Source of the DNA: an uncultured Gammaproteobacteria bacterium
GTDB lineage: Bacteria; Pseudomonadota; Gammaproteobacteria; JBBQDK01
Assembly: GCA_963778665.1 (NCBI GenBank)
Contig: CAVZVG010000005.1
Location: 205,805-269,804, forward strand
Length of the DNA stretch: 64,000 nt
Direction: 5' to 3'
Below the pieces are notes generated by a model, which was not told the origin of the DNA, made no database searches, and saw only the letters and a list, made by a program, of their open reading frames with translations. Positions 19,033-40,604 of the stretch are shown in pieces. Position numbers and translations under genes: made by a program. The first letter of the stretch is position 1. Each line of letters opens with the position of its first letter.

Positions 19033-19654
19033 AACATCTCTCCTCACCTGAAACGCAGGCACAAAAAAGCCCGGACCGGGACGAATCCTGTGTCCGGGCG
19101 AATCTCACTTTGCTTTCACTAGCGTTTCAACTAGGAAAACGACTTATTATAACCAAACTTCACACAGCGAACGTGACCGCCCCCGCAGGTCGGACGTGAC
19201 CGACCACTCAACTCAAGAGATGCGTTTTGAACGTAAAAATGCACTTCGATGAATAATAAACATCATATCAATGTTCTATTGAACAATGAAGACCTGGACT
19301 AAAATCCTGAGTGACACTGACAAAAAAGTTCTGTCGATGATGATAAATGCCAGACTGCCAAAGTTGAATTTGACATCAGCTGCAACACACAAACATCTGA
19401 CCTCATCAGGCAATGCGAAGTGTTTTTTTCGCTGGCAAACCGGCCGGGGGCACACCGGACATGAACCATGAGTCGACTATACCCTGCAAATGCACTGTGA
19501 CCTGATTCGCAGTCCACTCGCGTATACCCGACTAGAATCATCCACAATAACCGAATCCGTCCGGCTGCCGTCGGGAATGCTGCGAGAGGCGCCATGAACG
19601 GGAATGGAGTTGCACAATGCAGTACCCATACAGCAAAAAACCGGGGGTCGCCTT

Positions 19655-20614
19655 ATGAGCGCCGCGATGCACTATTCCATGAAACTATCGCTGGGCAGCG
19701 AAGGCGCCTGGGTGCGCGGCGAGGAGGCCATCATGGGCACGCGGATCTGGGTCGAGCTGTGGGCGGATGACCGGCAGGACGGGGCCGCGGCCGTGTCCGC
19801 CGTGATGGACGAGATGCACCACATCAACCATTTGATGAGCCCGTTTCGACCCGACAGCGAGTTGTCGCGCATCAACACGCTGGCAGCGCAGGCGCCGGTG
19901 GCGGTCGGCGATGAATTGTTTCATGTCATCGAGCGCAGCCTGGAATTCTCGCGCCTGACGGACGGCGTCTTCGATGTCACCTTCTCCAGCGTCGGCAATC
20001 TGTACGACTACCGCAACGGCGTGCACCCGACCGAAAAACAGATCGAGGATGCATTACCGGGCGTGAATTACCGTCATGTCATTCTGAATCACGCGGCACA
20101 TACGGTGCGCTTCGAACGGCCCGGCATGCGCATCGATCTCGGCGGCATCGCCAAGGGCTATGCGGTCGAAAAGGCCGCCGCCATGCTGCACCGACGCGGC
20201 ATCCGCCACGCCCTGGTCACGGCGGGCGGCGACAGTCGGGTGCTCGGCGATCACCGCGGCCGCCCCTGGATGGTCGGTATCCGCGACCCGCGCAACAGCG
20301 AACGCGAAGTGGCGATGCTGCCGCTCAGCGATACCGCCATATCGACCTCCGGTGATTATGAACGCTTCTTCGAAGCGGACGGCGTACGCCATCACCACAT
20401 CCTCGATCCCAAGACCGGCAAATCCCCCGGCGAAATTCACAGCGTGACGATCATCGGACCGGACGGCATGACGACCGAAGGCATCTCGACCAGCGTCTTC
20501 ATTATGGGTGTGCGCCGCGGCATGGCACTGGTGAATTCATTGCCGGGCATCGCGGCAGTGATTGTCGACAAGGACGGCATGCTGCATTACAGCAAGGCCT
20601 TACAGCCTGCCTAG
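19655..20614 (+). CDS. apbE: FAD:protein FMN transferase ApbE; no signal peptide evident
   Basis: ..EEAIMGTRIWVELW..; DLGGIAKGYAVE; ISTSGDYERFFEADGVRHHHILDPKTG motifs. Start taken at MSAAM because the duplicated fragment begins at this ATG; the ORF track starts 17 codons earlier. Confidence 0.8.
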   Translation: MSAAMHYSMKLSLGSEGAWVRGEEAIMGTRIWVELWADDRQDGAAAVSAVMDEMHHINHLMSPFRPDSELSRINTLAAQAPVAVGDELFHVIERSLEFSRLTDGVFDVTFSSVGNLYDYRNGVHPTEKQIEDALPGVNYRHVILNHAAHTVRFERPGMRIDLGGIAKGYAVEKAAAMLHRRGIRHALVTAGGDSRVLGDHRGRPWMVGIRDPRNSEREVAMLPLSDTAISTSGDYERFFEADGVRHHHILDPKTGKSPGEIHSVTIIGPDGMTTEGISTSVFIMGVRRGMALVNSLPGIAAVIVDKDGMLHYSKALQPA

Positions 20615-20842: not shown

Positions 20843-21997
20843 CTAAAACCATATCGACAGATACACCTGCACGACATCGGCCGAGAATCCATACAGCGGT
20901 TCCTGACCCGGCGTGCCGCCTTGCGTGACATCGCGGAAATCCCGATAGGAAAACAGCATGTGGTTGTAGGCCATGTTCAAGGTGCTCTTGTTGATGGCCT
21001 TCCATCCAGGGCGCGTGAAGTCGTAACTCAAGCCCATGCCGAAACTCTGCGAACTGAAACTGCTGAGTTCCTTGTCGCGGGCCAGGTAGTTCTGCGCATC
21101 CAGGTACGGGAACAGATCGCTGTAGAAATCGGCCTTGCCCTGGGTGTAATACCGGTAACTGACATCGAGGATCCATTTGTCATGCAGCGGTTGTTTGTAG
21201 CCGATCTCCGCGGTGTGTGCCTTGACGCCCCAGGTGTCGGTATAGTAACGGTACTGTCCCTGCAGCCTGGCGCGATACGGCAGGTAATAGCGCGCGGTGA
21301 CAGCCAGGGCATTGCTGGTGTGGGTCTTGGGGTAGCGTTCCGGCTCGTAGCTGTAACCCTTGCCGCTGCTTGAATCGAGATAGCGCACCGATCGATACGG
21401 GTTATTGAGAAAGCCCTGATCGGTGACCAGTTCGTAACTCGTATCTATCAGCAGATCCTTGGTCAGCACCTGCGACAGTCCCAGCGTGTAGTTCTGGCGA
21501 TCGAGACTGGCGGAGAACGACGGCTGGCCGTTCTTGCCGACGGTGTCCCAACCCCGCGAGTAGCCCATCGATACCGTGGTCATATCGCCGAACAGGCTCT
21601 GGGTCAGGTCGAGGTTGGCGGTGTTGGCTTTGTAATCGCTTTCCGTACTGTTGGTGTAGCCCATGTTGAACGTGGTTTTGGCGTGCAGGTAGCCGAGACT
21701 GATATTTCCCTGGGTGCGCTGTTCGGAATAGGGGCTGGCGGTCGATACCACATCGATGGACGCACTGCTGACCGTGTCGACATAGTAGTTGCCGCTCACA
21801 TCGGCATTCTGCCCGATATGCTTCAGCACCAGCACCGATGGACCGCTGACGGTTACCCCGCCGCCGGAGTAGGAATGATACAAGGCATCGGCACGCTGAT
21901 CCGGCAGCACATCCGCGCCGGCCGGCAGGTGTTCGAGCAACAGACCGACGGCGATCAGCGGCCAGGTCGATTTAATTGCAGCCACAACCACCTCCAT
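20843..21997 (-). CDS. DUF3570-family outer-membrane beta-barrel protein
   Basis: C-terminal ..VQVYLSIWF (aromatic OMP terminus) and alternating beta-strand pattern. The Met at 21997 gives signal peptide MEVVVAAIKSTWPLIAVGLLLEHLPAGA; the ORF track allows an ATG at 22042. Partner of DUF4266, TlpA and ApbE. Confidence 0.6.
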   Translation of the reverse strand: MEVVVAAIKSTWPLIAVGLLLEHLPAGADVLPDQRADALYHSYSGGGVTVSGPSVLVLKHIGQNADVSGNYYVDTVSSASIDVVSTASPYSEQRTQGNISLGYLHAKTTFNMGYTNSTESDYKANTANLDLTQSLFGDMTTVSMGYSRGWDTVGKNGQPSFSASLDRQNYTLGLSQVLTKDLLIDTSYELVTDQGFLNNPYRSVRYLDSSSGKGYSYEPERYPKTHTSNALAVTARYYLPYRARLQGQYRYYTDTWGVKAHTAEIGYKQPLHDKWILDVSYRYYTQGKADFYSDLFPYLDAQNYLARDKELSSFSSQSFGMGLSYDFTRPGWKAINKSTLNMAYNHMLFSYRDFRDVTQGGTPGQEPLYGFSADVVQVYLSIWF

Positions 21998-22196
21998 GCC
22001 CGCCGTCGGCGCCGCGCGCGCCTTCACGCGCTTCGTGCACATGATTGAGATAAGCGGTCGACACCGGATTCGGGTCGGCGCTCATGATCGGGTCCGCCAG
22101 GTGGGCGCGCTCATATGGCTTGACCCACGGCTGGATATTGCCGCAGGCCGTGAGCATCAGGCCGAGCAATATCACCAAATGTGTTCGCAATGGCAT
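21972..22196 (-). CDS. DUF4266-family small lipoprotein
   Basis: MPLRTHLVILLGLMLTAC lipobox; ..PWVKPYERAHLADPIMS..; C-terminal GGGCGCN is typical of DUF4266. ATG sits 3 nt after the tlpA stop. Confidence 0.65.
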   Translation of the reverse strand: MPLRTHLVILLGLMLTACGNIQPWVKPYERAHLADPIMSADPNPVSTAYLNHVHEAREGARGADGGHGGGCGCN

Positions 22197-22198
22197 GA

Positions 22199-22705
22199 TC
22201 ACTCCCGCAACAGTTCGCTGACCTGCTGTTGATAGGTCTGCTCATAACCCGGCATATAACCCTGATGCAGATAGCGCACCTTGCCGTTGCGATCCACCAG
22301 CACGGTACTGGGCATGGCTTCGAGATTGTAGAGTTTGCTGACGACGCTCTGCGGATCGAACAGCACCGGAAAATGCACCGGATGCTCTTTCAGCAATGCC
22401 TGCGCCGCAGTCGTATCCTGCTCGACGTTGACACCGAGAATGGTGAAGCCGAGCTTCTGATAGCGCTGATAAAGCTCATCGAGCAACGGCATCTCCTGAC
22501 GACAAGGCCCGCACCAGGAGGCCCAGAAGTTGACCAGCACCACCTGACCGCGCAACTCGCTGAGCTTGAGATTCTCGCCACTCAGGCTCTTGAGTGTGAA
22601 ATCGGGTGCCGGTGGCGACGGCACAGAAGCCATCGCGCTGCTTACACACGCGGCCAGCAACACTGCACGCAAGGTGCGCGGAAGGAATCGAAAGCGTCTA
22701 TTCAT
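22199..22705 (-). CDS. TlpA-family periplasmic thiol:disulfide oxidoreductase
   Basis: WASWCGPC active site, signal peptide MNRRFRFLPRTLRAVLLAACVSSAMA, GGAG RBS. Confidence 0.8.
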   Translation of the reverse strand: MNRRFRFLPRTLRAVLLAACVSSAMASVPSPPAPDFTLKSLSGENLKLSELRGQVVLVNFWASWCGPCRQEMPLLDELYQRYQKLGFTILGVNVEQDTTAAQALLKEHPVHFPVLFDPQSVVSKLYNLEAMPSTVLVDRNGKVRYLHQGYMPGYEQTYQQQVSELLRE

Positions 22706-22754
22706 AATATTCTCCACATAGAGCACATGACAAAATGGATCTTGCGCTGCACTA

Positions 22755-22818: not shown

Positions 22819-23478
22819 TCAGAAAAACACCGTCATGCCGCCGGTGAATTCCAGATTGTGCGTGGTCTTGCTGGTGCCGAGCAGATCGCTGCTGAAGACG
22901 TGATCGCGTACGTCCGCGTGCAAGGCCAGCCAGTCCGTGGCGAGCAGGCGGTAACCGGTGCCGAAGTTCACCGTGAAGCGGCTGTCGTTGGCGAATTTGG
23001 TGCTGCCGACACCGGCGATCACGTAGAGTGCCGAATTGAAGGCGTGCTTGCTGCCGATGAAGGCCTCGCCCGGCAGCAGGTTGTACCCCAGGGAGATGTT
23101 GTAATAGCTGTAGACACGTTCGGCATCGGTAAGCACACGGGCCGATCCGCTGAGCGTTTCGTAACTGGTCTTGCCGACGGTGCTGCGGCCGTAGGCGCCT
23201 TCGGCGAAGAAGTCCTCGGTGATGTGATAGGCACCGCGCAGGCCGTAGACCGGGTTCGAGCCGAAGTCTTCGACGCTGAGCACGCCGGCATAGGCACCCA
23301 GCTCGAAGTCGGCACTGTCGATATGCGGCGTCGTGATCGTACGCCGCGAAATACCGGGGTCGATGATCGGCTCATCCTGATCATCCGCGGCGAATGTCGC
23401 CGCGCTGCCGAGCGTCACGCAGGCCAGCAGCGCCGCGCCGAATCGCTTCAGAAAAATACCGTGCAGCCAATTTTCCAT
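22819..23478 (-). CDS. Outer-membrane beta-barrel protein (OmpA-like 8-strand barrel family)
   Basis: Signal peptide MENWLHGIFLKRFGAALLACVTLGSAATFA; C-terminal ..EFTGGMTVFF. Overlaps the upstream gene's stop by 31 nt. Confidence 0.6.
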   Translation of the reverse strand: MENWLHGIFLKRFGAALLACVTLGSAATFAADDQDEPIIDPGISRRTITTPHIDSADFELGAYAGVLSVEDFGSNPVYGLRGAYHITEDFFAEGAYGRSTVGKTSYETLSGSARVLTDAERVYSYYNISLGYNLLPGEAFIGSKHAFNSALYVIAGVGSTKFANDSRFTVNFGTGYRLLATDWLALHADVRDHVFSSDLLGTSKTTHNLEFTGGMTVFF

Positions 23479-24185
23479 TCGTTGATCCCCTGATTGCTGT
23501 CTCTGTTTTGATAGACGACATAATTGTTGTACTCGGCGCGCAGCAACAGGCGGCGCGCCAGATAGGTACGCACGCCGACACCGACGTGAGTGGTGCCGTC
23601 CGAGCGGTTCTGACTCTGTACCAGCGTGACCTGCGGGTCGGTTCGTATCACACCGCTGCCCAGCGCGAAGAACGGTGACACGCGCCATTCCGGGAACGGC
23701 TGCGCCACCAGGTTCACATTCAGCATCAGACTATCGGAATATGTCCCCAACACCTGCGACAGAGACAATTCCGTCGCCAGTGTCGGCGTGAAGGCATAAC
23801 CGCCGTAGGCAGTGATCACATGCGCGCCACCGAAACTGCCGCCCAGCACGCCCAGTTCCCAGCGCCGCCGGTTGTAGTCGTCACGGCTCGCATCCGCGAG
23901 GCGCAAGGGCTGACCGGCGGCAAGTTGCGTCTGCTCGATCTGCTTGCGTGTCACCCAACCCTGCTTGCCGCGTGCGGTGCGCACCTTGAACCAGTCGGTC
24001 TTGCGCAGCAGTATCTCTATCCATTCACCCCGCTCCGCCACATAGAAAATCGGATAGCCGCGTCCCGGTCCGGTATGCAGTTCGACATATGGTGCACGCA
24101 CCTCGACACGCAACGCTTCCTTGCCCTGCGCGAGCGGCACAACCAACCAGGCCAGCAACAGCCAGATGAGTACAGGCTTGCGCAC
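23448..24185 (-). CDS. SH3-domain plus outer-membrane beta-barrel fusion protein
   Basis: Bacterial SH3-like segment (ALRVEVRAPYVELHTGPGRGYPIFYVAERGEWIEILLRKTDWFKVRTARGKQGWV) then a barrel ending ..KIGCTVFF. A GTG start overlapping the upstream TAG (TAGTG) gives signal peptide MRKPVLIWLLLAWLVVPLAQG; the alternative ATG is at 24242. Confidence 0.6.
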   Translation of the reverse strand: MRKPVLIWLLLAWLVVPLAQGKEALRVEVRAPYVELHTGPGRGYPIFYVAERGEWIEILLRKTDWFKVRTARGKQGWVTRKQIEQTQLAAGQPLRLADASRDDYNRRRWELGVLGGSFGGAHVITAYGGYAFTPTLATELSLSQVLGTYSDSLMLNVNLVAQPFPEWRVSPFFALGSGVIRTDPQVTLVQSQNRSDGTTHVGVGVRTYLARRLLLRAEYNNYVVYQNRDSNQGINEWKIGCTVFF

Positions 24186-26818
24186 TAGTTGAGCGGCGCC
24201 GCAAACGGGTCGTTGTAATACTGCGCGCCGATGTCCAGCCATTCGGATATCAGGCGCAGTTCCGCCGGATTCAGCCAGCCCGCGTGCGTGCCGCCGCTGG
24301 CGAACTCGGCGAAGAAGCGACTCGAAGCGCGCGCCCCCGCCGTCGACATCGCAGGCGTCACCGGCACGGTGACCATGATCGGGATCGGCTGGTTGTTCAC
24401 ATCCAGCACCTGGTTGCCATTGGCATCGAGCAGGAACAGTGGATTGCCGTTGGCATCGGTGGCCTGGACCAGTTGATCCTGTAGCACGCCACCGACAAGT
24501 TCCTGCGCGTTGTCGGCGGCCAGCAACTCCTGGTAGGACTTCAGACGATCCGCCTGTTGGTCGGACTGACCGTCACTGAGATCAAGCTGCGCGGCGGGTA
24601 CCTGCGCCGCGCCGTTCAAATCCACATTGTTGTGACAATTGGTGCAGGTGTGATTGGCGATTTCCACCCCGTTGCCGTCCAGCACCGGACGAGGCGTACT
24701 CCAGAGCGGATGGATGTGCTGCGGATAATGTATGACGATGCGGCACAGGCTGTTCCACAGGATCTGGCAATTGGGCGTGGTCGGCGCGGGCGTGGTCAGG
24801 TCGCTATAGCGATAGCTGAAGTCGGCATCCTTGGCACGCAGCGCCGGATCGGTCCAGACATCGTCGAAGTTGATCTCGACGCTGGGCAGCAGTGCATTCG
24901 GTGTGAGGCGTGTGCGCGTCTCGGCCATGGTCTCGCCGTAATCGGCGAACATGGCAGGATCCGTGTCGGGGAAAGGCAGTCCGGTGGTGGGCGCGCCGGC
25001 ATTGATCGAGGTCGCGACGGCATCGGCCCGACCGTGCGCGGGCGGTGTCGCGGCACCGGTGTTGTGCTGATGGCAGCCGCTGCAGGTCTGCGTTTCGCCG
25101 GCACGCAGCTGCAGCCAGTTCGAGTGCCGCGCACCGATGCGCCGACCTTCGCTGTCGAGCACTTCGAGTTCGAAGGCGACATTGGCAGGCACTTCGATCT
25201 TCACCGAGCCGTCGGGTTCGATAGGCGCATAACCCAGTATCTCGCGCATCGACTGCTGACTGCTGGCGCCGAAGGCCGTGGCCTTGAAATCGCGCACCGT
25301 CTTATCCGGTATGCTGACGGCCTTCACCAGGCGCAGGAAACGCGCCGGACGCTGCGCCGCCGTGGTCTTGGCGGGATCGGCAAGATCGGCGAGTGATGTG
25401 ATGTTGGCGGCAGACGTGCAGTCACTGAGGAAGCAACCATTGAACGTGCCGGTGCCGAAATCGTAGACACTGCGGATATCCAGCACGCCGACGTTGTCCG
25501 CTATCAGACCCGCGTCGAGACCATTGCCGGCGATGCCGTCATACAACAGCGTCGGTCGCGGGCGCGGTTGCGCGACGATCACATCGGTATAGATCACGCC
25601 TTCCTGCGGCGCGACCACCGGCAGTTGCGTATCGCCGGCACGGTTATAAATGAAGATGCCATACAGTGGCGGCGCTTCCTGGACGTTTTGCGCGGCGAGA
25701 CCTTGCGCGGTGCAGGGCACGATATTGCCGTTTTCGATCAGACGACAGGCACTCCAGCTGACCAGCATGCGATCGGAGCCATCCCAGAGCGGATCGGCGG
25801 CACTGTATCGTCCGCCGGGCGAGGGACCGACGGCGGTCTGCACCGCATTGACTATCGCGCGGGTCTGCGCGGGCCCTGTCAGCACGTTCCGGCTCGTCCA
25901 GACCGGTCTATCGTTGTCGACATAGTCGGTCGTATCGATGAGCGTCAGATCGCCGCCCTGGTCGGTGCCGGTGAAGGGACGCGTGATCGTCAACAGGCGA
26001 CCGTCGGGATAAAGCCGCGGACGCAGGAACTGCACCGTATCGCCGGCACTGCCGGTGGCATGGCTGTGAGCGCCGTACAGCACCTGCATGTCCGTGCCAT
26101 CCGGGCGCACAGTATAGAGATTCATGGCATTGCTGGTGCCCATGTGATCCCAGCGGCTGAACAGCACCCGACCGTCACTGAGCAGCGTGGGATCGAGATC
26201 ATTGCTCTGGTTGAACGTGATCTGATGCATGTCGCTGCCGTCGCCGTTCATGACATGCAGTACCAGCGCCGCTTGCTGACGGTTTTCGTTCAGGGCGGCG
26301 AACTGCGGCTTGCCTTCATCGAGCAGTACGGCGCGTGACTGCCGTTGGCGCGTGGATGAAAAAACGATACGCCCATCGGCGAGGTAATGCGGCGCGACAT
26401 CATCGCCTTCTTTGGCGATGATGTCGGAGCTGATCAGACGGTGCAGTTGCCGGCTGACAGTATCGTACTCCCAGATATTCCATTTGGTCTGATCGGCGGG
26501 AGTCGCGCCGGTTATTTCCGGTTCGTGCAGCGCGAACAGCAGCGTCTTGCCGTCGTACGAGGCAGTGACATCCTTCACATCGCCAAGTCCTTGCGTCACG
26601 GTCGCGGTGACATTGCGCTCCGCCGCGCTGGGTGACGCGTAATCGCGATAATACAGATCGCCGCCGGGCGACATGGCCAGGGGATCGCGCGCATCTTCCT
26701 GTTGATCTGCTATCAAAGGACGCTTCACATAGGCAATGCCGACATCGGCGACGATCGGATCGGGCGCCTGACTGCCGCCACCGCAGCCGGTGAGATGCAA
26801 CAACAGACACGCCAACAT
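24185..26818 (-). CDS. Lipoprotein with a TolB/WD40-like beta-propeller region and two c-type haem-binding motifs
   Basis: Lipobox MLACLLLHLTGC. PD40-like repeats (..GRIVFSSTRQRQSRA.., ..GRVLFSRWDHMG..). CSGCHQHN and CTNCHNNV CxxCH motifs. 877 aa. Confidence 0.65.
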   Translation of the reverse strand: MLACLLLHLTGCGGGSQAPDPIVADVGIAYVKRPLIADQQEDARDPLAMSPGGDLYYRDYASPSAAERNVTATVTQGLGDVKDVTASYDGKTLLFALHEPEITGATPADQTKWNIWEYDTVSRQLHRLISSDIIAKEGDDVAPHYLADGRIVFSSTRQRQSRAVLLDEGKPQFAALNENRQQAALVLHVMNGDGSDMHQITFNQSNDLDPTLLSDGRVLFSRWDHMGTSNAMNLYTVRPDGTDMQVLYGAHSHATGSAGDTVQFLRPRLYPDGRLLTITRPFTGTDQGGDLTLIDTTDYVDNDRPVWTSRNVLTGPAQTRAIVNAVQTAVGPSPGGRYSAADPLWDGSDRMLVSWSACRLIENGNIVPCTAQGLAAQNVQEAPPLYGIFIYNRAGDTQLPVVAPQEGVIYTDVIVAQPRPRPTLLYDGIAGNGLDAGLIADNVGVLDIRSVYDFGTGTFNGCFLSDCTSAANITSLADLADPAKTTAAQRPARFLRLVKAVSIPDKTVRDFKATAFGASSQQSMREILGYAPIEPDGSVKIEVPANVAFELEVLDSEGRRIGARHSNWLQLRAGETQTCSGCHQHNTGAATPPAHGRADAVATSINAGAPTTGLPFPDTDPAMFADYGETMAETRTRLTPNALLPSVEINFDDVWTDPALRAKDADFSYRYSDLTTPAPTTPNCQILWNSLCRIVIHYPQHIHPLWSTPRPVLDGNGVEIANHTCTNCHNNVDLNGAAQVPAAQLDLSDGQSDQQADRLKSYQELLAADNAQELVGGVLQDQLVQATDANGNPLFLLDANGNQVLDVNNQPIPIMVTVPVTPAMSTAGARASSRFFAEFASGGTHAGWLNPAELRLISEWLDIGAQYYNDPFAAPLN

Positions 26819-27159
26819 GCCGCGCAGAACGTGGCAGGGCGTGGTCGATCCGTTGGCAGTGACATTCAGAATACGCACCTACACACATCCATCCATTGTC
26901 TGTCGCTGGGATTGCATTATCGTTTGACAGTGATTTCACGATCTGACGACGTGATCACAAAAATGTCAGGAAAAGTTTGCAGAATGGTCACCACAGAGTC
27001 GGGCAACATGCAGGGACGGAAAAGATGCCGGTTATCGGGGACAGCATTGATGATGACACACCGATCTGTGCAGGACGCGCAACAACACTCTATGCGATGT
27101 CCGGATCGACAGACCGCAACCGGCACTCAAACGACAGGCAACAGAAGGGGAAACAGCCA

Positions 27160-28377
27160 ATGACGGTCAGCGTGAAACATCGCGATTCAACGCGGTTGCG
27201 TCTGGTGATCCGGGCTTTGCTCGCAGGCTGCCTGCTTCTCGGCGTCACCGACGCGGCCATGGCCGGCGCCCGCGAACAGGCCAAGCGTCTGCATGACCGG
27301 CTCACCGGCGTACCGCCGAGCGCCACGGTATTGGATACGATGCAGGCGGACATCAGCGGTGGCGATCCATTATCGGCCGCCTATCTGGCCATGGACAACA
27401 GTGCCTTTTACAACGTGACGCTGAAGGACTTCGTCACGCCCTGGACCAATCGCGATCAGACCGTGTTCGCGCCGCTCAACGACTACACCGCCACCGTGAT
27501 CGGCATGGTGCGCGACGATGTGGACTTCAGGAAAGTGCTGTACGACGACATCCTCTATGTCGGCGCGGGCAACCTCGGCCTGCCGGCCTATGCCATGACC
27601 AACAACGATCTTTATGACGCCATGGAAACACAGGGCATCGATCTCAAAACCAATCTGGTCGCCACCACGCAATCGGCCAAGACCGATCTGCCGGCGGCTG
27701 CCACCGCCGGCATCATGACCACGCGCGCCGCCGCACAGGCCTTCTTCATTGCCGGCACCAACCGCGCCATGCTGCGCTTCACTTTCATCAATTACCTCTG
27801 CACCGATCTGGAACAGTTGAAGGACATAACCCGTTCGCCGGACCGCATCCGTCAGGATGTTTCGCGCAGTCCGGGCGGCGACAGCCGGATCTTTCTCAAC
27901 TCCTGCGTCGGTTGCCATGCCGGCATGGACCCGATGGCGCAGGCCTATGCCTATTACAACTACGACGCCCCCAGCGCACGACTGGTCTACAACGGCGTAT
28001 CGGCCATCGACCCCAGCACCGGCACGCGCGTGCAGGCCAAGTACCATATCAACTCGGATAATTTCAAATACGGCTACGTGACGCCCGACGATCGCTGGGA
28101 CAACTACTGGCGCAGCGGCCCCGACGCCCTGCTCGGCTGGGACAGCACGCTGCCCGGCGGCGGCAATGGCGCGAAATCCCTGGGGCAGGAATTGGCGAAC
28201 ACCGAGGCCTTCGCGCAATGCCAGGTCAAGAAGGTCTTCAAGACCGTCTGCCTGCGACCGCCGGGCAACGCGGCCGATCGCAATCAGATCGACACCATGG
28301 TCACCTCGTTCAAATCGAACGGCTATCACTTGAAACGCACGTTCGCCGAGGCGGCCGTGTATTGCATGGGTGATTGA
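27160..28377 (+). CDS. Secreted mono-haem cytochrome c-type protein of unknown family; possibly a planctomycete-type PSCyt-like domain
   Basis: Signal peptide MTVSVKHRDSTRLRLVIRALLAGCLLLGVTDAAMA; single CVGCH motif; 406 aa. RBS AAGGGG. Divergent from the beta-propeller gene. Confidence 0.6.
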   Translation: MTVSVKHRDSTRLRLVIRALLAGCLLLGVTDAAMAGAREQAKRLHDRLTGVPPSATVLDTMQADISGGDPLSAAYLAMDNSAFYNVTLKDFVTPWTNRDQTVFAPLNDYTATVIGMVRDDVDFRKVLYDDILYVGAGNLGLPAYAMTNNDLYDAMETQGIDLKTNLVATTQSAKTDLPAAATAGIMTTRAAAQAFFIAGTNRAMLRFTFINYLCTDLEQLKDITRSPDRIRQDVSRSPGGDSRIFLNSCVGCHAGMDPMAQAYAYYNYDAPSARLVYNGVSAIDPSTGTRVQAKYHINSDNFKYGYVTPDDRWDNYWRSGPDALLGWDSTLPGGGNGAKSLGQELANTEAFAQCQVKKVFKTVCLRPPGNAADRNQIDTMVTSFKSNGYHLKRTFAEAAVYCMGD

Positions 28378-28433: not shown

Positions 28434-30928
28434 ATGAACGACACGCGCAAGTCGGTTGTTGCTATGCATAACATGTCGCCTCATCGCGGTACGGCCTGGA
28501 CATACTTGCTGGCGGCACTTGTGCTGCTCGGCCTGTCGGGTTGCGGTGGCGGCAGCACCACGCAGAACCCCAACACCAGCGGCCCGCAGGCGCTGGACTA
28601 TACGGGGCCGGCGGCAAGCACGGCCGATGTGCAGGCCTTCAAACTCAATGTCTGGGACAATCTGCGCGCGACCAACCGCTGCGGCGCCTGTCACGGTGCC
28701 GGCGGCCAGGCACCCAACTTCGTGCGTCAGGACGATGTCAATCTGGCCTATGCCGCGGCGAACCCGCTGGTCGATCTGAGCTCGCCGGCCGATTCGCGCA
28801 TGGTGGTCAAGGTATCCGGCGGTCACAACTGCTGGCTGGCGAGTTCCGCGGCGTGCGGCGCGGTGCTCACCGCCTACATCAGCGCCTGGGCCGGTGGTTC
28901 GGTCGGCGGTCCTGCCCAGCAGATTCAACTGGTGGCGCCACCGATCAAGGATGCCGGCGCCAGCAAATCCTTCCCGGCCGATCCCAGCCTGTTCGCCAGC
29001 ACGGTGCATCCTCTGCTCATGGCACATTGCGCCGGCTGTCACACCGATACCTCGGCGACACCGCAGGCGCCGTTCTTCGCGGTCAGCGATGCCGCGAGCG
29101 CGTATGACGCCGTGACATCCAGTCACAAGATCGATCTGGACACACCGGCCAATTCACGGCTGGTCGTGCGTCTGCGCGACGAGTTTCACAACTGCTGGAG
29201 CGATTGCCAGAGCAATGCCGACGAGATGCTCGCCGCGATCACCAGCTTTGCCAACGGCGTACCGGTCACCGCGGTCGATCCGTCGCTGGTGATCAGCAAG
29301 GCCCTGAAGCTGACCGACGGCATCATCGCCAGCGGCGGCAGCCGCAACGTCGCCAATGTCATCGCGCTGTACGAATTCAAGACCGGCACGGGCAGCACCG
29401 CCTACGACACCAGCGGCGTGGAACCGGCACTGAATCTGACATTGTGCGGCGACGTCGGCTGGGTGAACGGCTGGGGCATCGATATCCGCAACGGCAAGGC
29501 ACAGGGCACGACCGCGGCGAGCAGCAAGCTCAGCAAACTGATCAAGGCCACCGGCGAATACACGATCGAAGCCTGGGTGGTGCCGGCCAATGTCACGCAG
29601 GAAGGACCGGCGCGCATCATCAGCTATTCGGGCGGCACCACGACGCGTAACTTCACGCTCGGACAGACGCTCTACAACTACGATTTTCTGCAACGCAGCA
29701 GCAACTCCGACGGCAACGGCGAACCGGCTTTGTCGACCGCCGATGCCGCGGAACGCCTGCAGGCCACGCAGCAGCATGTGGTCGTGACCTATACCCGACG
29801 CAAGGCCGGCGCATCTACGTCAATGGCGTGGATACCGGCGATCAGGATCCGCTGGCCGGCGGCAGCCTGGCGGACTGGGACGACAGTTTCGCCTTCGTGC
29901 TCGGCAACGAAGTCTCCGGCGACCGTCTCTGGCAAGGCAAGCTGCGCATGGTGGCGATTCACAACCGCGCCCTGACGCCGGAGCAGATCCTGCAGAATTA
30001 CAAGGCCGGCGTCGGCGAGAAATACTATCTGCTGTTCGATGTCAGCGCGCTGGTAAACCTGCCGCAGAGCTACATCATGTTCGAGGTCAGTCAATTCGAC
30101 AACTACAGCTATCTGTTCCTCAAGCCGACCTTCATCAGTCTCGATCCCAGCGTCACGCCCGGCAACATCCCGCTGCGCGGCCTGCGTATCGGCATCAACG
30201 GCAAACTGGCCAAGGTCGGCCAGAGCTACAGCGAGCTCGATACCGCAATCACCGCCGCACAATACAGCAGCAGCGGGCAGCTGTTGTCGGACCTCGGCGC
30301 GGTGATCGCCAGCGAGAAAGGCGCCGATGCGGACGAGTTCTTCCTGGACTTCGAGTCACTCAACGGTCACGACAACGTCATCACGGAACCCGCGCCGCTG
30401 CAACCGCCGCCGCCTGCCGACAGCGCGCCGGTCGCCGACATCGGTGTGCGCACCTTCGACGCGATCAACGCGACCATGGCGGCACTGACCGGCGTCAGCC
30501 CGAACGAAAGCAACGTGAAGACCACCTTCGACACCATCAAGCAGCAACTGCCCACAGTGACGAACATCGAAGGCTTCGTGTCCGCGCATCAGGTCGCGGT
30601 CGCCCAGCTGGCCATCGAGTATTGCAACGCGCTCGGCGATGACACCACGTTGCGCGCCGCTTACTTCCCGTCACTGGACTTCAGCGCGAGTGCCGCCAGC
30701 GCGTTTGCCGACAGCACCGGTCGCAACCTGCTCATCGATCCCCTGCTGAGCCGGATGCTGGGCAGCAACATCGCCACGCAACCCGACAGCACGGCGGTGC
30801 GTACCGAACTCGACAACCTGATCGTGAAACTCACGCCGTGCACCGGGTCGTGCGGTACTCGTACAGTCACGATCACCAAGGCGGCCTGCGCGGCGACCCT
30901 GGGCAGCGCCGCGATGCTGGTGCAATGA
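28434..30928 (+). CDS. Lipoprotein with two CxxCH motifs, a LamG (concanavalin-like) domain and a C-terminal domain; apparent frameshift near 29810
   Basis: Lipobox LLGLSGC. CGACHGAGG and CAGCHTDTS. The LamG domain (..EAWVVPANVTQEGPARIISYSGG..YTRRKAG) continues in the next frame as RIYVNGVDTGDQDP..WQGKLRMVAIHNRALTPEQI. The shift lies in a GGCCGGCGC run. Combined product is about 830 aa. Confidence 0.6.
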
Positions 30929-31001: not shown

Positions 31002-32605
31002 ATGGTGAGCAAACGCAGACCCCTGTTGCCGGACGAGCCCTTGCTGCACGCGCATCACAAGCGCCCCGTCACGCGCCGCGATTTTCTGGCGCAGGGCTTG
31101 CGGGCTGGCATCGGCATGGCTACTCGCGCCATCGATCTTCGGCCTGTTCGCCGATCCGCGCGCCGCGCAGGCCGCGCTGTCATCGGACCTGCAGGCCTTG
31201 AAGACATCCTGCGGTATCGCCGTGGCGGGCGCCGGCAAGATTCCGTTCATCTGTTTCGATCTGGCCGGCGGCGGCAACATCTCCGGCTCCAATGTACTGG
31301 TCGGCAAGCAAGGCGGTCAGCTGGATTTTCTCAGCACGGCCGGCTACAGCAAGCTGGGCCTGCCCGGCGACATGGTGCCGTCCATCGTCAATCCACTCAC
31401 CGCCAGCAATGATTTCATCGACAGCAGTCTGGGGCTCGCGTTTCATTCCGACAGTGCCTTTGCGCGCGGCATACTGGAACGCGTCTCGCCGGGCACGGCC
31501 GCGAACATCAACGGCGCGGTGCTGCCGGCGCGCTCCGACAACGACACCAGCAACAATCCCCACAACCCCATGTACGGCATCAACAAGGCCGGCGCCGACG
31601 GTGAACTGCTGACATTGATCGGTTCGCAGAACTCCGATTCGGGCGGCAACTCGATGGCACCGGCCGACATGATCAATCCCAAGGTACGGCCCACCAAGAT
31701 CGACCGGCCCAGCGATGTCACCGGCCTGGTCGATACCGGCAAGCTGGTCGGCTTGTTGAGCCAGCAGGATGCCGTCGCGGTCATGGAATCCATCGAGCGC
31801 ATCAGCGCCATGAAACTCGGCAAGGTCGATACCAAGATCAGCGACCGATGCGGTGGTGAAGGATCTGGTGCAATGCGGTTACGTGAAGTCCGCCGATCTG
31901 GTGGACCGTTACGGCGATCCCGACGACACTCAATCCTTCCATCGATGCCCGCATCGTCGGCAGCAGTGGCATCTTCACGCAGGCCGAGTTCGACGGCGAC
32001 AGCCGAATTCCGCAAAACCGCCTCGATCATGAAACTGGTGACCAATGGCTTCGCCGGCGCCGGCACCGTCAGCATGGGCGGCTTCGACTATCACACCGGC
32101 GACCGCTCCACCGGCGAACTGCGCGATCTTGCGCGCCGGTCGCTGCATCGGCGCCTGCCTGGAATACGCGGCACGCGTCGGCGTACCGCTGATGGTCTAT
32201 GTGTTCAGCGACGGTTCACTGGCCAGCAACGGCATGGTCGATAACTCCGTCGATGGCCGCGGCAAGGGCGTGTGGACCGGCGACAACTCCGATACCGCCG
32301 CGTCGTTCTTTCTGGTGTACAACCCCACGGGCCGGCCGACATTGCTCGGCGGCACGTCGAGCGCCAGGCCATGCATCAGCAGATCGGCTGGTTCCGCAGC
32401 CGACGGTTCGGTGGAAACCGCCAGCAGCCCCGCGGCCAACAACGTCAACCTGCTCGCCGAAACCGTCGTACTGAATTACATGGCACTGCACGGCGAACAG
32501 GGCAACTTCGCCAGCCTGTTCCCCGGCAACGGTCTGGGCAGCCCTACTCTCCTGGACAGCCTTACCGCCTTTCAACCCATCGTCAACGGGACTATCGGAG
32601 CATGA
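31002..32605 (+). pseudogene. DUF1501-like (sulfatase-superfamily) Tat-secreted protein gene, broken by three or more frameshifts
   Basis: Twin-arginine signal MVSKRRPLLPDEPLLHAHHKRPVTRRDFLAQGLRAGIGMA with GAGGAAA RBS. DUF1501-like blocks (..IPFICFDLAGGGNISGSNVLVG.., ..MGGFDYHTGDRSTGEL..) are spread over three frames (ORFs 30981.., 31198.., 32045..). Confidence 0.5.
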
Positions 32606-32754: not shown

Positions 32755-32766
32755 TTTTCTTCTTTG

Positions 32767-33276
32767 ATGGCGTGGGCGATTGTCAGTCTGCTGCTTCTGT
32801 TACCCGTGTCCGTGTCTGCCGCCGACACACCCGCCGCCATCGACGAACAAGTGCAATCCCTGAAATCGGAAGTGCTGAACCTGAACCGCGATCTGTTCGT
32901 GCTGGAGGAGGAACTGCTGTATCCGTCCAGCACCCAGGTGGCGGTATTCCTGTCGCTGGATGTCGGCACCTTCTTCAAGTTCGATTCGGCGCAAGTCAAG
33001 ATCGACGACAAGATCGTCGCCAACTATCTGTACACCGCGCGTGAACTGGAGGCCTTGCGCCGTGGCGGCGTGCATCGCATCTACATGGGCAACCTGAGCA
33101 GCGGCAAACATGAGCTGGTGGCCTTGTTCACCGGTCAGGGGCCCAATCAGCGCGATTACCGGCGCGGCGCCACACTCAACTTCGACAAGAGCGTCGGTCC
33201 GAAATACATCGAACTGAAGATCGTCGACAAGGAAGGCAAGCAGCAGCCGGATTTCCAGATCAGGGAATGGGAATAG
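32767..33276 (+). CDS. Secreted coiled-coil hypothetical protein; possibly DUF3450-like TonB-system accessory
   Basis: Signal peptide MAWAIVSLLLLLPVSVSA; heptad-like IDEQVQSLKSEVLNLNRDLFVLEEELL. Its stop overlaps the next gene's ATG. Confidence 0.5.
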   Translation: MAWAIVSLLLLLPVSVSAADTPAAIDEQVQSLKSEVLNLNRDLFVLEEELLYPSSTQVAVFLSLDVGTFFKFDSAQVKIDDKIVANYLYTARELEALRRGGVHRIYMGNLSSGKHELVALFTGQGPNQRDYRRGATLNFDKSVGPKYIELKIVDKEGKQQPDFQIREWE

Positions 33277-37943: not shown

Positions 37944-38523
37944 TCTGATCGGCGCGATGATCGCCGCGCTCTGGCTGGCCGGCTGCGCGACAACACCGGC
38001 GCCTCGACAGACGCCAAATACCGGTATGGCGCGTCCCGCCGACCCGCAATTCGATCAGGCGTTGGGACTGATGCACACCCGGCATTATTCCCAAGCCATC
38101 CCGCTGCTGGAAGCCGTATCAAGATCGCAGCCGGACCTGCAGCTGGTCGAATTGAACCTGGCCATCGCGCAGGCCCGCAGCGGTCACGACGCGCAGGCCG
38201 AACCCTTGTTGCGGCAGGTGCTGGCGCAGAATCCCGCCAATGCCGTGGCCTGGAATGAACTGGGCATGTTGCAACGACGCGCGGGACATTTCGATAAGGC
38301 ACGCCTGGCCTATGAGCAGGCGCTCTCCACGAACGCTTCCTATGCCGACGCGGAACTCAATCTGGCGATTCTCTATGACCTGTACCTGCAACAACCGGCA
38401 CAGGCCATACCGCACTACCGGCGCTATCAGTCGCTGGCCGCGACGCCCGACAAGCGCGTCACTTTGTGGATCGCGGAGCTGAGCAAGACGATGCCGGTGG
38501 CGAAGGGAGATAAGCAACCATGA
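37930..38523 (+). CDS. Small TPR-repeat lipoprotein
   Basis: MHYRNLIGAMIAALWLAGC lipobox; TPR-like repeats (..AVAWNELGMLQRRAGHFDKARLAYEQAL..). The ATG is embedded in the upstream gene's 3' end. Confidence 0.6.
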   Translation: MHYRNLIGAMIAALWLAGCATTPAPRQTPNTGMARPADPQFDQALGLMHTRHYSQAIPLLEAVSRSQPDLQLVELNLAIAQARSGHDAQAEPLLRQVLAQNPANAVAWNELGMLQRRAGHFDKARLAYEQALSTNASYADAELNLAILYDLYLQQPAQAIPHYRRYQSLAATPDKRVTLWIAELSKTMPVAKGDKQP

Positions 38524-38569
38524 ACAGAGCGATTCTCGGAGCAACCAACCTGAATCTTGCAAACCACTG

Positions 38570-38608
38570 TCACTCCCTCTCCCTCCGGGAGAGGGTTGGG
38601 GAGAGGGG
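38570..38608. repeat. Family B hairpin repeat (CCCTCTCCC-TCC-GGGAGAGGG plus TTGGGGAGAGGGG)
   Basis: Same core as 22755 and 32635. Lies between the TPR lipoprotein and the small secreted-protein gene. Confidence 0.5.
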
Positions 38609-38630
38609 ACTCTTTCTGTTAGGTGCTCTT

Positions 38631-40603: not shown

Positions 40604-40604
40604 C

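Follow-up and report, generated by a model that had tools for sequence, protein, structure and literature searches.

A gene on the minus strand of the 64-kb window, as the whole stretch of DNA analysed is called here, encodes a lipoprotein that unites a propeller with two CxxCH haem sites, and the question that this locus raises is what such a protein does in the cell envelope. The answer that we consider probable is that this Sec-exported, lipid-anchored two-haem c-type cytochrome sits, most likely, at the outer membrane and serves as the redox-active lipoprotein in an envelope system conserved among Gammaproteobacteria.

The gene and its domain plan

The features of the gene are the following:

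24185..26878, minus strand: dihaem lipoprotein gene resembling the alpha subunit of hydrazine synthase (HZS-alpha), intact in one frame, stop TAG at 24187-24185
26783..26794, minus strand: lipobox LTGC (aa 9-12), with Cys12 as the putative lipidated first mature residue
25469..26740, minus strand: predicted six-bladed TolB/PD40-like beta-propeller (aa ~27-450)
25067..25336, minus strand: HZS_alpha middle domain (aa 495-584, Pfam PF18582), aligned to 5c2v_A
25070..25084, minus strand: haem I motif CSGCH (aa 579-583), aligned with the haem alpha-I motif of HZS-alpha
24188..24781, minus strand: C-terminal cytochrome-c-like domain (aa ~680-877) with a beta-hairpin-rich insert
24632..24646, minus strand: haem II motif CTNCH (aa 725-729), invariant in 27/27 relatives
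24284..24286, minus strand: His845, aligned with alpha-His772, the distal ligand of the bis-His haem alpha-II

Translation may begin either at GTG 26878 (897 aa) or at the internal ATG 26818 (877 aa). From the ATG, 11 residues without a charged n-region precede the lipobox Cys, while the GTG adds an n-region with an Arg; the starts of close homologues lie 8-10 residues upstream of the ATG. Residue numbers are counted here from ATG 26818. The strings quoted in the first-pass annotation, DGRIVFSSTRQRQSRA (aa 148-163), DGSDMHQITF (aa 193-202) and DGRVLFSRWDHMGT (aa 215-228), are all found in the translation of this frame. An identical protein is already recorded (P0001), and homologues form 4,641 clusters at 90% identity, from at least 589 species or species-level representatives, which makes this a large, unnamed family in Gammaproteobacteria. 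Taken together with the invariant CxxCH motifs and the kept lipobox Cys, these records imply more than a chance reading frame: the gene is real, and its product is a membrane-anchored protein uniting a six-bladed propeller and two haem sites.

Conservation was evaluated in 27 diverse relatives (38-60% identity). Of these, 25 retain the lipobox Cys, and since residue +2 is Gly and the Asp inner-membrane retention signal is absent, the E. coli rule would send the lipoprotein to the outer membrane. Both CxxCH motifs, H188 in the propeller, H565, R710 and W860 are invariant. The conserved pairs Cys358/Cys369 (propeller) and Cys684/Cys692 (C-terminal domain) would fit an oxidising compartment. His845 is aligned in 24/27 relatives, and in the other three an unaligned motif search places a His within the same C-terminal motif. 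The middle domain terminates in the first haem motif, around which three residues are candidate sixth ligands or pocket residues: H565, H595 (25/27) and M631, the Met of an 'ETMA' motif that lies 30-55 residues past the first CxxCH in 26/27 relatives and is replaced by Leu in one family member. The AlphaFold2 model has pLDDT below 50 for aa 583-650, around haem I, so the ligation and openness of this haem cannot be read from it.

Relationship to hydrazine synthase alpha

A profile of 35 family members, compared with the whole PDB, has a sole match: 5c2v_A, the HZS-alpha of Kuenenia stuttgartiensis (E=1.6e-13), in four collinear pieces across the propeller, middle and C-terminal domains. The single lipoprotein sequence reaches the same chain at E=1e-7, and it is also the top Foldseek match (E=4e-22, 668 columns), with TolB behind at 1e-10. 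The Pfam HZS_alpha domain passes its cut-off (59.4 bits vs 26.6). The earlier description, in which a TolB-like propeller and two haem-c motifs are combined in a lipoprotein, is thus upheld by the lipobox, by structure prediction, by the domain search and by the context of both CxxCH motifs, which lie in regions homologous to haems alpha-I and alpha-II with the distal His of haem II kept. What did not hold is the notion that the architecture is unusual, as the same three domains in the same order are known from HZS-alpha (PF18582, PDB 5C2V) and recur in thousands of database proteins.

The likeness comprises the collinear order of propeller, CxxCH-bearing middle domain and class-I-like cytochrome c domain, an identical CSGCH at haem alpha-I, and the CxxCH of haem alpha-II with its distal His (alpha-His772, numbered as position 745 of the 5c2v chain plus 27, corresponding to His845). 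The differences are considerable: identity is only ~17% in the Foldseek structural alignment, the protein described here carries a lipid anchor, the equivalent of alpha-Tyr591 is a gap in the alignment to 5c2v_A, the Cys303/Zn site is missing (the alpha-Cys303 position is His or variable in the family), and the hosts are Gammaproteobacteria with another gene context, in which no beta or gamma partner genes were found. In HZS-alpha a Tyr stands in place of the His; without that Tyr, haem I would be expected here to be His-ligated in the ordinary way.

The shared plan and Pfam domain, together with the kept haem alpha-I CxxCH and bis-His haem alpha-II ligands, could be read as a genuine hydrazine synthase alpha and hence as cryptic anammox-type nitrogen chemistry in a gammaproteobacterium; some metagenomic surveys indeed count any such protein as HzsA (PMC11828985). 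This can be almost dismissed. The NCBIfam equivalog hydrazine_alpha requires 800 bits and the lipoprotein scores 49, it has no counterpart of Tyr591 or Cys303, and family hosts include aerobic heterotrophs and sulfur oxidisers. The only CxxCH frames across the 64-kb window are the lipoprotein gene and two divergent neighbours, the window has no CCP/MauG-like gene or beta-propeller partner, and the conserved neighbours examined across 44 related loci yielded no beta/gamma-type partner. Other distant homologues have likewise been judged negative (PMC12758564). With the two residues missing and no beta/gamma partner found in the window or those loci, the lipoprotein belongs to the hydrazine-synthase-alpha superfamily and is not a hydrazine synthase.

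The conserved neighbourhood and the proposed role of the haems

Synteny was evaluated in a sample of 44 species, each with a locus with full 10-kb flanks. The neighbouring genes and their occurrence in this sample are listed below:

23448..24185, minus strand: protein with SH3b and a small outer-membrane beta-barrel (Pfam OMP_b-brl), ending ...TVFF; 44/44 loci
22819..23478, minus strand: second small outer-membrane beta-barrel (OMP_b-brl and OMP_myx_plus), ending ...TVFF; 43/44 loci
22199..22726, minus strand: periplasmic TlpA/ResA-type thioredoxin-fold protein; 34/44 loci
21972..22202, minus strand: DUF4266 small lipoprotein, ending GGGCGCN (CXC motif); 43/44 loci
20843..22042, minus strand: DUF3570 protein (Pfam 147.6 bits); 43/44 loci
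19604..20614, plus strand: ApbE FAD:protein FMN transferase (Pfam E=1e-83), convergent with DUF3570
27160..28377, plus strand: divergent secreted protein of ~405 aa with one CxxCH and weak PSD2/PSCyt3 similarity; 44/44 loci
28464..30928, plus strand: lipoprotein with two CxxCH and Laminin_G_3, ~853 aa in orthologues; 44/44 loci
31002..32581, plus strand: Tat-signal protein (TRRDFL), ~534 aa in orthologues; 43/44 loci
32755..41579, plus strand: Agl-Glt 'core complex'-type block, as follows
First in the block, plus strand: X2, ~171 aa
33267-35150, plus strand: GltC-like TPR protein
35147-37943, plus strand: GltD-like TPR protein, frameshifted
37930-38523, plus strand: GltE-like TPR lipoprotein
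38520-38891, plus strand: extra gene of 123 aa
38931-39581, plus strand: ExbB/TolQ-like protein
39581-40111 and 40115-40603, plus strand: two ExbD/TolR-like proteins
40605-41579, plus strand: GltG-type TonB-like protein

The lipoprotein gene had been proposed to be the first of an operon with two OMP barrels, and the Pfam match of both barrels to OMP_b-brl agrees with this. The probable start codon of the first barrel, a GTG, shares one base with the lipoprotein stop (taGTG at 24185), as is typical of translationally coupled genes, and the probable start of the second is MENWLHG.... The second barrel scores 173 bits with NCBIfam OMP_myx_plus, and a BLASTP comparison of the two barrels gave no significant similarity. 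DUF3570 is predicted to be an outer-membrane beta-barrel of ~16 strands (AlphaFold2, with Foldseek matches to outer-membrane barrels) and has two tandem flavinylation-type motifs, DxVSSAS and DVVSTAS, at aa ~89-103, in a loop that, judged from the strand order of the model, would lie on the long-loop (outer) side. Experiments have established DUF3570 as a substrate of ApbE (PMC8238504).

On the divergent side, the Laminin_G_3 lipoprotein gene is split by a frameshift near 29793 and the Tat-signal gene, whose product has no family match, by two. Counting the GltD-like gene, three partner genes in the window are frameshifted, which may reflect partial decay of the system at this locus or an error-prone assembly. 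The order and sizes of the core-complex block agree with Table S3 of PMC3169522, and the TonB-like protein scores 69 bits against the GltG/GltJ C-terminal domain model (cut-off 40). In a distant three-haem relative (L083), an HZS-alpha-like gene, two barrels, X2, three TPR genes, a small gene, ExbB and two ExbD form one operon, in which a 297-aa gene takes the GltG position, placed there by position only. Linkage within 10 kb is incomplete: X2 and the GltC-like gene are found in 28/44 loci and ApbE in 17/44, an observation that counts against the explanation favoured here.

These neighbours suggest how the system would work. The lipoprotein would be co-translated with the two small outer-membrane barrels, and its propeller would serve either to dock it onto the barrels and the TPR scaffold or to lead a small substrate to haem I. 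In HZS-alpha, haem II is surface-exposed. Here it could exchange electrons with neighbouring carriers, the candidates being the partner CxxCH proteins and the module of thioredoxin, DUF4266 and flavinylated DUF3570 barrel; there may be no internal relay that passes them on to haem I. The adjacent TolQRA-like Agl-Glt core complex would probably energise or organise the outer-membrane module. The earlier suggestion that the lipoprotein might dock a partner and pass electrons remains plausible; it did not take in the wider setting of flavinylation module, partner cytochromes and Agl-Glt core complex.

One alternative is that it does nothing but pass electrons. If the near-invariant 'ETMA' Met, H565 or H595 closed haem I, both haems would be six-coordinate (I as His/Met or His/His, II as His/His), the propeller would be a docking platform only, and the lipoprotein would be a periplasmic or surface wire, MtrC-like, joining the partner cytochromes and the flavinylated DUF3570 barrel to an external acceptor or donor. 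The lipid anchor, the adjoining barrel genes, the DUF3570 barrel model with its judged-outer motifs and the two co-conserved CxxCH proteins speak for this possibility, which we nevertheless hold to be unlikely: a long-range wire would be expected to carry more than two haems, the adjoining barrels (~220-245 aa) are too small to sheath a cytochrome, the Met is a Leu in one family member, and the window showed no genes known from metal respiration.

One bis-His haem together with one possibly open haem is an arrangement that resembles bacterial cytochrome c peroxidases (CCPs). The lipoprotein could then be an envelope peroxidase or oxidative-stress enzyme, with haem I peroxidatic and haem II the point of electron entry, as in the dihaem enzymes, re-reduced through the thioredoxin/DUF4266/flavoprotein module. 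A neighbour with a Redoxin/AhpC-TSA fold would suit such a role, as would the CXC lipoprotein and the flavoprotein as thiol and flavin redox carriers (PMC8238504). This proposal is nonetheless highly improbable, given that the lipoprotein resembles CCP/MauG in neither sequence nor fold, that the CCP-like subunit of hydrazine synthase is gamma and not alpha (PMC12607021), and that the thioredoxin, missing in 10/44 loci, has its best curated matches in ResA/TlpA and may just serve cytochrome c maturation.

A mechanical role has also been considered, in which the lipoprotein acts chiefly as a TolB-like structural adaptor within a trans-envelope machine of the Tol-Pal/Glt type: its propeller would bind both barrels and the GltG-type TonB-like protein, and its haems would be sensory or structural instead of catalytic. 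The neighbours do parallel Tol-Pal and Agl-Glt (one TolQ-like protein, two TolR-like proteins, a TonB/TolA-like protein whose C-terminal domain is of GltG/GltJ type, TPR repeats like those of YbgF/CpoB, and a barrel with SH3b), the succession of lipoprotein, barrel, barrel and GltC-like mirrors gltK-gltB-gltA-gltC, and in Myxococcus the outer-membrane lipoprotein CglB, which has a propeller domain, is held by GltAB (PMC4488436, PMC11761067). Such an adaptor seems improbable, however, because the absolute conservation of the two haem sites and the axial His argues that redox chemistry is central, and because the co-conserved thioredoxin, DUF4266, DUF3570, ApbE and two CxxCH proteins are hard to explain mechanically. 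The N-terminal domain of TolB is also absent (NCBIfam TolB, 22 bits vs a cut-off of 343); and the lipoprotein differs from TolB in its lipid anchor, its two haem domains and its location outside any tol-pal operon.

Comparison with known systems

Distant HZS-alpha homologues outside anammox bacteria have already been discussed in print (PMC12758564, PMC11828985). For clades I-IV, from Planctomycetota and Desulfobacterota, hydrazine formation was likewise judged not to occur (Hagglund et al., 2025, PMC12758564); they too are HZS_alpha-domain dihaem proteins with signal peptides that lack Tyr591 (a two-residue gap) and Cys303. The gammaproteobacterial family is set apart from them by their published description: the clade members adjoin fused beta-gamma homologues, which this family does not, even clade I lacks the alpha-His772 that is conserved here, and those homologues are few, occur in anaerobes and come with no mention of Gammaproteobacteria.

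Propellers at an active site are joined to a c-type cytochrome domain in NirS (cytochrome cd1 nitrite reductase) and in quinohaemoprotein alcohol dehydrogenases. The design logic of a propeller fused to an electron-exchange cytochrome c is the same, but those propellers are eight-bladed and bind haem d1 or PQQ, while the catalytic candidate here is a c-type haem in a separate middle domain; the lipoprotein matches none of these families in Pfam or NCBIfam.

The four components of the ApbE-DUF3570-thioredoxin-DUF4266 clusters (Meheust et al., 2021, PMC8238504) are present and syntenic here, with the same CXC end in DUF4266 and tandem flavinylation-type motifs in DUF3570. The published motif is [S/T]GA[S/T], whereas DUF3570 in the window has SSAS and STAS and most orthologues have TTAS. 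No DsbD was found among the window genes scanned. In the available text and supplements of that study, neither HZS_alpha proteins nor OMP pairs nor Glt-type genes are described as associated with these clusters.

A close parallel in gene order is offered by gltK/cglC-gltB-gltA-gltC of the Myxococcus xanthus Agl-Glt outer-membrane module and by the gammaproteobacterial core complex (Luciano et al., 2011): lipoprotein, two small OmpA-like barrels, GltC-like TPR, GltD-like, GltE-like, an extra gene, TolQ-like, two TolR-like and a GltG-type TonB-like protein. The sizes in the block agree with published gammaproteobacterial core complexes, and the adhesin CglB is also an outer-membrane lipoprotein with a propeller domain (PMC11761067). 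The barrels parallel GltA/GltB in gene order; gltA/B/K have been reported as restricted to Myxococcales and Bdellovibrionales, and the lipoprotein is a dihaem cytochrome without a VWA domain, not GltK or CglB; gliding is not expected in the hosts of this family. What is new is the gene context, in which an HZS-alpha-like gene stands together with the barrels and, usually, also with a flavinylation module, the three divergent secreted proteins and an Agl-Glt core complex.

The gene, its lipid anchor and its domain plan

The open reading frame of the HZS-alpha-like protein (HZS-alpha being the alpha subunit of hydrazine synthase) occupies 24185..26878 of the minus strand, begins with GTG and encodes 897 amino acids. 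A gene is indeed present where the first-pass annotation had placed one (24185-26818), and position 26818 corresponds to an internal ATG that would give 877 residues; residue numbers below count from this ATG. Which of the two codons is used is uncertain. With the ATG start the signal peptide is 11 residues long and has no charged n-region, which the GTG start provides, and the N-termini of close homologues start 8-10 residues upstream of the ATG position, with a hydrophobic stretch before the [GA]C. The same annotation had called the product a lipoprotein, and the lipobox LTGC at residues 9-12 does match L-x-[GA]-C, its cysteine being kept in 25 of 27 relatives. Glycine instead of aspartate at position +2 suggests Lol export under the E. 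coli rule. All the strings that had been quoted from the sequence were recovered, those of the propeller at residues 148-163 (DGRIVFSSTRQRQSRA), 193-202 (DGSDMHQITF) and 215-228 (DGRVLFSRWDHMGT), and the haem motifs at residues 579-583 (CSGCH, nt 25070-25084) and 725-729 (CTNCH, nt 24632-24646).

A chance reading frame can be rejected, given that an identical protein is on record and that 4,641 homologous clusters were scored. The closest relative, a protein of a Gammaproteobacteria metagenome-assembled genome, has 87% amino acid identity. An exhaustive search of 50%-identity representatives gave 571 of them at E<=1e-30, and relatives are encoded in at least 589 species-level genomes. Among the matches listed, the hosts are Gammaproteobacteria in nearly all cases (for example Thiogranum, Ca. 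Thiodiazotropha, Sedimenticola, Woeseiaceae, Steroidobacteraceae, Kangiellaceae, Aliiglaciecola and Lentisalinibacter), and Thiogranum longum and Lentisalinibacter sediminis are examples of cultured organisms that have the locus.

The Pfam model of the hydrazine synthase alpha middle domain (HZS_alpha, PF18582) matches the protein with 59.4 bits against a cut-off of 26.6 (E=5e-16). PD40 is matched as well, and Cytochrom_C and Cytochrome_CBB3 fall exactly on the two CxxCH motifs, both below their cut-offs. Among all PDB sequences the only significant match is the hydrazine synthase alpha subunit, 5c2v_A (E=1e-7 with the single sequence, E=1.6e-13 with a 35-member family profile), in collinear pieces across the propeller, middle and C-terminal domains. 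The AlphaFold2 model has a mean pLDDT of 72; the propeller (residues ~27-450), whose onset lies ~15 residues past the lipidated cysteine, is confident and the first haem site is poor. Foldseek ranks 5c2v_A first with this model (E=4e-22, 668 aligned columns) and TolB next (~1e-10, propeller only). The three-domain architecture of HZS-alpha, a six-bladed propeller followed by a haem middle domain and a cytochrome c domain, is present.

The first-pass annotation had proposed structure prediction and a search of domain databases as checks. The former bears out the TolB-like propeller, while the latter, together with the PDB and Foldseek results, leaves the claim of an unusual architecture unsupported, given that the whole protein follows the already known HZS-alpha plan. 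The propeller is thus read as TolB-like in shape and the protein as a whole as built on the HZS-alpha plan. TolB shares the six-bladed PD40 propeller, but its N-terminal domain is missing here and the TolB family model TIGR02800 scores 22 bits against a cut-off of 343, and on these two counts a TolB orthologue is rejected. It has also been considered that the protein might be a peroxidase-type enzyme of the envelope, a reading that finds no support in the fold and is held to be very improbable. The protein is, in short, a conserved, exported and lipobox-bearing member of an uncharacterised and very large gammaproteobacterial branch of the HZS-alpha superfamily.

Haem sites and the question of hydrazine synthase

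For the comparison of residues, published HZS-alpha numbers are obtained by adding 27 to the PDB chain index (His560 of the CSGCH motif is His587), and conservation was scored over 27 diverse relatives of 38-60% identity. Invariant among them are H188, H565, C579/C582/H583, R710, C725/C728/H729, E853, W860 and D862; H595 is found in 25 and Met631 of an 'ETMA' motif in 26, and the cysteine pairs 358/369 and 684/692 are nearly invariant. Some distant members carry a third CxxCH in an additional C-terminal extension, namely P0258 and P0265, the HZS-alpha-like proteins of the related loci L083 (1068-3938) and L082 (26-2974), and these three-CxxCH proteins do not have the conserved H595 or the Cys684/Cys692 pair.

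With two invariant CxxCH motifs and a conserved axial ligand for the second haem, the sequence describes a putative c-type cytochrome. At haem II, the CTNCH site, His845 aligns with alpha-His772 (chain position 745), the distal ligand of the bis-His haem alpha-II; histidine is aligned at this position in 24 of the 27 relatives, and an unaligned search finds it within the same C-terminal motif in the remaining three. Because CTNCH is invariant and His845 conserved, haem II is very probably bis-His, as in HZS-alpha. Haem I, the CSGCH site, is probably ligated by histidine on its proximal side, and H565, H595 and M631 are candidates for its axial ligands. These conserved Met and His candidates would also suit a pure electron carrier or wire in which both haems are six-coordinate, an alternative that is judged unlikely. 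A redox-active part for the dihaem protein in an envelope system is the reading that is preferred here.

At haem I the protein carries the very motif, CSGCH, that HZS-alpha has at haem alpha-I. In HZS-alpha, Tyr591 takes over from histidine as the iron ligand of haem alpha-I (PMC12607021). At this position the present protein has a gap (CSGCHQHN-TG aligned with CSGCHYGSYRG), and the family consensus shows no tyrosine at +4. Cys303 of HZS-alpha, a zinc ligand in a site formed with His587, aligns with His251 of a GAHSH loop, and across the family its column holds H, N, D, K or A, never cysteine.

The possibility that the protein is a true hydrazine synthase, considered in view of its domain plan, fares no better on the remaining evidence. 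The NCBIfam equivalog scores 49.1 bits against a cut-off of 800. Genes for the partner subunits, the beta propeller and the CCP/MauG-like dihaem gamma, do not occur in the 64-kb window, where the only other CxxCH reading frames are two unrelated divergent neighbours, and in 44 related loci the conserved neighbours that were tested include no beta- or gamma-type partner. Four defining features have failed, among them the Tyr591 and Cys303 features. With catalytic residues, partner subunits and equivalog score all failing, a true hydrazine synthase is rejected as having almost no probability.

The conserved locus

Gene neighbourhoods were compared by searching (tblastn) the window proteins against 80 related species-level loci, and counts refer to the 44 loci with full 10-kb flanks; as these loci are the 80 closest, the figures describe the core of the family.

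Genes of the locus in the window, with the number of counted loci in which a neighbour occurs
24185-26878, minus: HZS-alpha-like dihaem lipoprotein
next gene downstream, minus: SH3b and outer-membrane (OM) barrel protein (first barrel), 44/44
after the SH3b barrel, minus: second OM barrel, OMP_myx_plus 173 bits, 43/44
after the second barrel, minus: TlpA/ResA-type thioredoxin, 34/44
after the thioredoxin, minus: DUF4266, 76 aa, C-terminal GGGCGCN (CXC), 43/44
20843-22042, minus: DUF3570, last of the run, 43/44
19604-20614, plus: ApbE, convergent with DUF3570, 17/44
divergent, upstream, plus: one-CxxCH protein, weak PSD2/PSCyt3 similarity, 44/44
28464-30928, divergent, plus: two-CxxCH lipoprotein with Laminin_G_3, 44/44; frameshift at ~29793
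divergent, upstream, plus: Tat-signal protein with no family match, 43/44; frameshifts at ~31100 and 32130
beyond the Tat protein, plus: X2, ~171 aa
plus: TPR/coiled-coil protein, 627 aa (GltC-like)
plus: TPR protein, ~927 aa, rich in YbgF/CpoB-like repeats (GltD-like); frameshift at ~36373
plus: TPR lipoprotein, ~197 aa (GltE-like)
plus: extra gene, 123 aa
plus: ExbB/TolQ-like protein, 216 aa
plus: two ExbD/TolR-like proteins, 176 and 162 aa
plus: TonB-like protein, 324 aa; C-terminal GltG/GltJ (AgmX/PglI) model NF033768, 69 bits against a cut-off of 40

The linkage to the two OM barrels is tight and very widely conserved: the TAG stop codon of the HZS-alpha-like gene and the GTG with which the following gene probably begins have one base in common (taGTG at 24185), and the operon opens in the same way in three members that are more remote in sequence (38-41% identity). 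Paralogy of the barrels in the style of GltA/GltB is not supported by BLASTP, which showed no significant similarity between the first and the second. Linkage to the flavinylation module, the two CxxCH proteins, the Tat protein and the Agl-Glt core complex (a TolQRA-like motor with TPR proteins) is frequent.

The set of thioredoxin, DUF4266, DUF3570 and ApbE is that of the flavinylation cluster described by Meheust et al. (2021; PMC8238504), and it is clustered here too. Flavinylation of DUF3570 by ApbE was demonstrated experimentally in that study, which left the function of DUF3570 open (PMC8238504). In the model (pLDDT 79), DUF3570 is a barrel of ~16 strands with structural matches to outer-membrane barrels only. 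It carries two conserved motifs in tandem, D-x-V-S-S-A-S and D-V-V-T-T-A-S (residues ~89-103), the second of which ends in TTAS in most orthologues and in STAS (DVVSTAS) in the window; where the published [S/T]GA[S/T] logo has glycine (Meheust et al., 2021), the motifs seen here have serine or threonine. In the model they span the last part of strand 3 and the loop after it; judged by strand order, this loop is on the long-loop side of the barrel, which would correspond to the outer side or the lumen. Such a location is odd for a substrate of periplasmic ApbE. The position of ApbE itself is fluid. In Thiogranum longum, as in several further loci, it is encoded after DUF3570 and in the same direction, and many loci have it on the far side, close to the core complex, or at a distance of more than 10 kb.

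The three divergent neighbours found no match in PDB sequence searches, and what Pfam and NCBIfam provide is limited to weak similarities to PSD2/PSCyt3 and to cytochromes. Together the three are reminiscent of the cytochrome-like/Tat-enzyme gene pairs of Planctomycetes. A DUF1501/DUF1552-like enzyme, considered for the Tat protein from its Tat signal and a GGYDYHTGD motif, is supported by no model. The Laminin_G lipoprotein contains, twice, a repeated unit CxxCH ... SRLVxK/R ... HNCW (window 28464-30928; 5743-8304 of the related locus L001). Relative to intact orthologues, four frameshifts interrupt three of the neighbour genes, none at a long homopolymer, and these could represent assembly error or decay of partner genes; the operon on the minus strand of the window is intact, as is the HZS-alpha-like gene.

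Gene order and sizes beyond the Tat protein match the gammaproteobacterial core complex. The order established by Luciano et al. (2011) is gltC, gltD, gltE, one extra gene, aglR, aglQ, aglS and gltG, with example sizes in their Table S3 of 550-692/933-1016/162-263/gap/205-272/169-188/162-185/321-334 amino acids and, for Marinobacter Maqu_1595-1602, of 321/162/176/221/gap/162/939/550 (PMC3169522); the window has 627/~927/~197/123/216/176/162/324. The TonB-like protein shows in addition a partial gliding_GltG match, and there is a weak GltE match of 38 bits, where the cut-off is 225. In 28 of the 44 loci, X2 and the GltC-like gene are no more than 10 kb from the HZS-alpha-like gene, after DUF3570/ApbE or beyond the Tat protein. 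In L083, the locus of the three-haem protein P0258 (41% identity), the DUF3570 module is missing and genes of core-complex type share a single operon with the HZS-alpha-like gene, in the order YfaZ, HZS-alpha-like, SH3-barrel, barrel, X2, three TPR genes, a 118-aa gene, ExbB, two ExbD and a 297-aa gene in the GltG position. No published link between the core complex and cytochromes was found in the literature.

Several other features of the window deserve mention. An 829-aa reading frame (16573-19062, minus) fuses a BBP2_2 putative porin to an OMP_b-brl domain and has weak NCBIfam matches to PEP-CTERM-system-associated outer-membrane proteins (TIGR03016, EpsL). A small secreted protein at 6410-7061 (plus), apparently divided between two overlapping frames, has a tail, VPVPAAFWLFGSGLLGLIGASSRKQAA, that resembles a PEP-CTERM sorting signal; the stretch 6000-9000 is low in GC (47-53% vs ~60%), with few long reading frames and several A/T runs. 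Just past the locus (43318-46380, minus), a 1,020-aa penicillin-binding-protein-like reading frame has a transglycosylase match and a weak transpeptidase match. Neither tRNA nor Rfam matches occur in the window.

Proposed role and comparison with known systems

The general proposal, which is put forward with somewhat better than even confidence, is that the HZS-alpha-like protein is anchored by its lipid to the outer membrane and acts there as a dihaem cytochrome, the redox-active part of an envelope system; much less confidence attaches to any specific substrate. Electron exchange with carriers nearby would fall to haem II. Haem I, located where the propeller meets the middle domain, could bind a small substrate or serve as a second relay centre, and the propeller might act in docking or as a channel. 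The TolQRA-like core complex may energise or organise this outer-membrane module. No role has been assigned to haem alpha-II of HZS-alpha, which lies too far from the other haems for efficient transfer (PMC12607021). The parallels with the Tol and Glt systems could suggest a TolB-like mechanical adaptor in which the haems are secondary, but haem sites that are absolutely conserved and neighbours of redox character speak against this, and such an adaptor is regarded as distinctly unlikely.

A wider reading can be offered tentatively, as one that is possible and on balance doubtful. The core complex, a conserved gammaproteobacterial TolQRA-like motor with a TPR scaffold and the source of the myxobacterial gliding and spore-coat machines, would ancestrally have been an envelope machine driven by the proton-motive force; its outer-membrane end would be the HZS-alpha-like dihaem lipoprotein held by a GltB/GltA-like pair of barrels, together with a flavin-bearing DUF3570 barrel, and the family would in addition represent a large reservoir, in aerobic lineages, of the plan recruited for the HZS-alpha of anammox. 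If true, this would mean that a Tol/Ton-type motor is linked to redox chemistry outside the cytoplasm, at the outer membrane or across it.

The architecture being already known, the undescribed part is the super-locus, which ties three orphan sets (HZS-alpha-like cytochromes, the ApbE/DUF3570 module and the Agl-Glt core complex) into one conserved locus. The core complex, to which no function has been assigned since 2011, thereby gains a candidate output protein that can be followed by spectroscopy.

Among known systems, the likeness to the Glt module of Myxococcus lies in position, size and type of domain: a lipoprotein, two barrels and a GltC-like protein succeed one another as gltK(cglC)-gltB-gltA-gltC do in M. 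xanthus. GltB and GltA of M. xanthus are OmpA-like barrels of 275 and 256 aa (PMC4488436), and in current models GltAB hold the outer-membrane lipoprotein CglB, which has a propeller domain, at the surface (PMC11761067).

With regard to hydrazine synthase, Hagglund et al. (2025) reached the same negative verdict on distant homologues in Planctomycetota and Desulfobacterota, which adjoin beta-gamma homologues and reportedly do not have His772; Gammaproteobacteria are not mentioned in that study (PMC12758564). One study takes HZS_alpha-like proteins of many phyla as HzsA (PMC11828985), a count that is unsafe because the gammaproteobacterial family fails the catalytic and partner-subunit tests. 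Proteins with the HZS_alpha domain are now used as anammox markers in metagenomes, and this family, far larger than the few anaerobe homologues described to date, should not be counted among them. From the type HZS-alpha the gammaproteobacterial protein differs in its lipid anchor, its haem-I ligation, its gene context and the absence of partner subunits; in contrast to the homologues of Hagglund et al. (PMC12758564), the family is without beta-gamma neighbours and keeps the equivalent of His772. In keeping both the three-domain plan and the bis-His ligand of haem II, it bears on the origin of hydrazine synthase.
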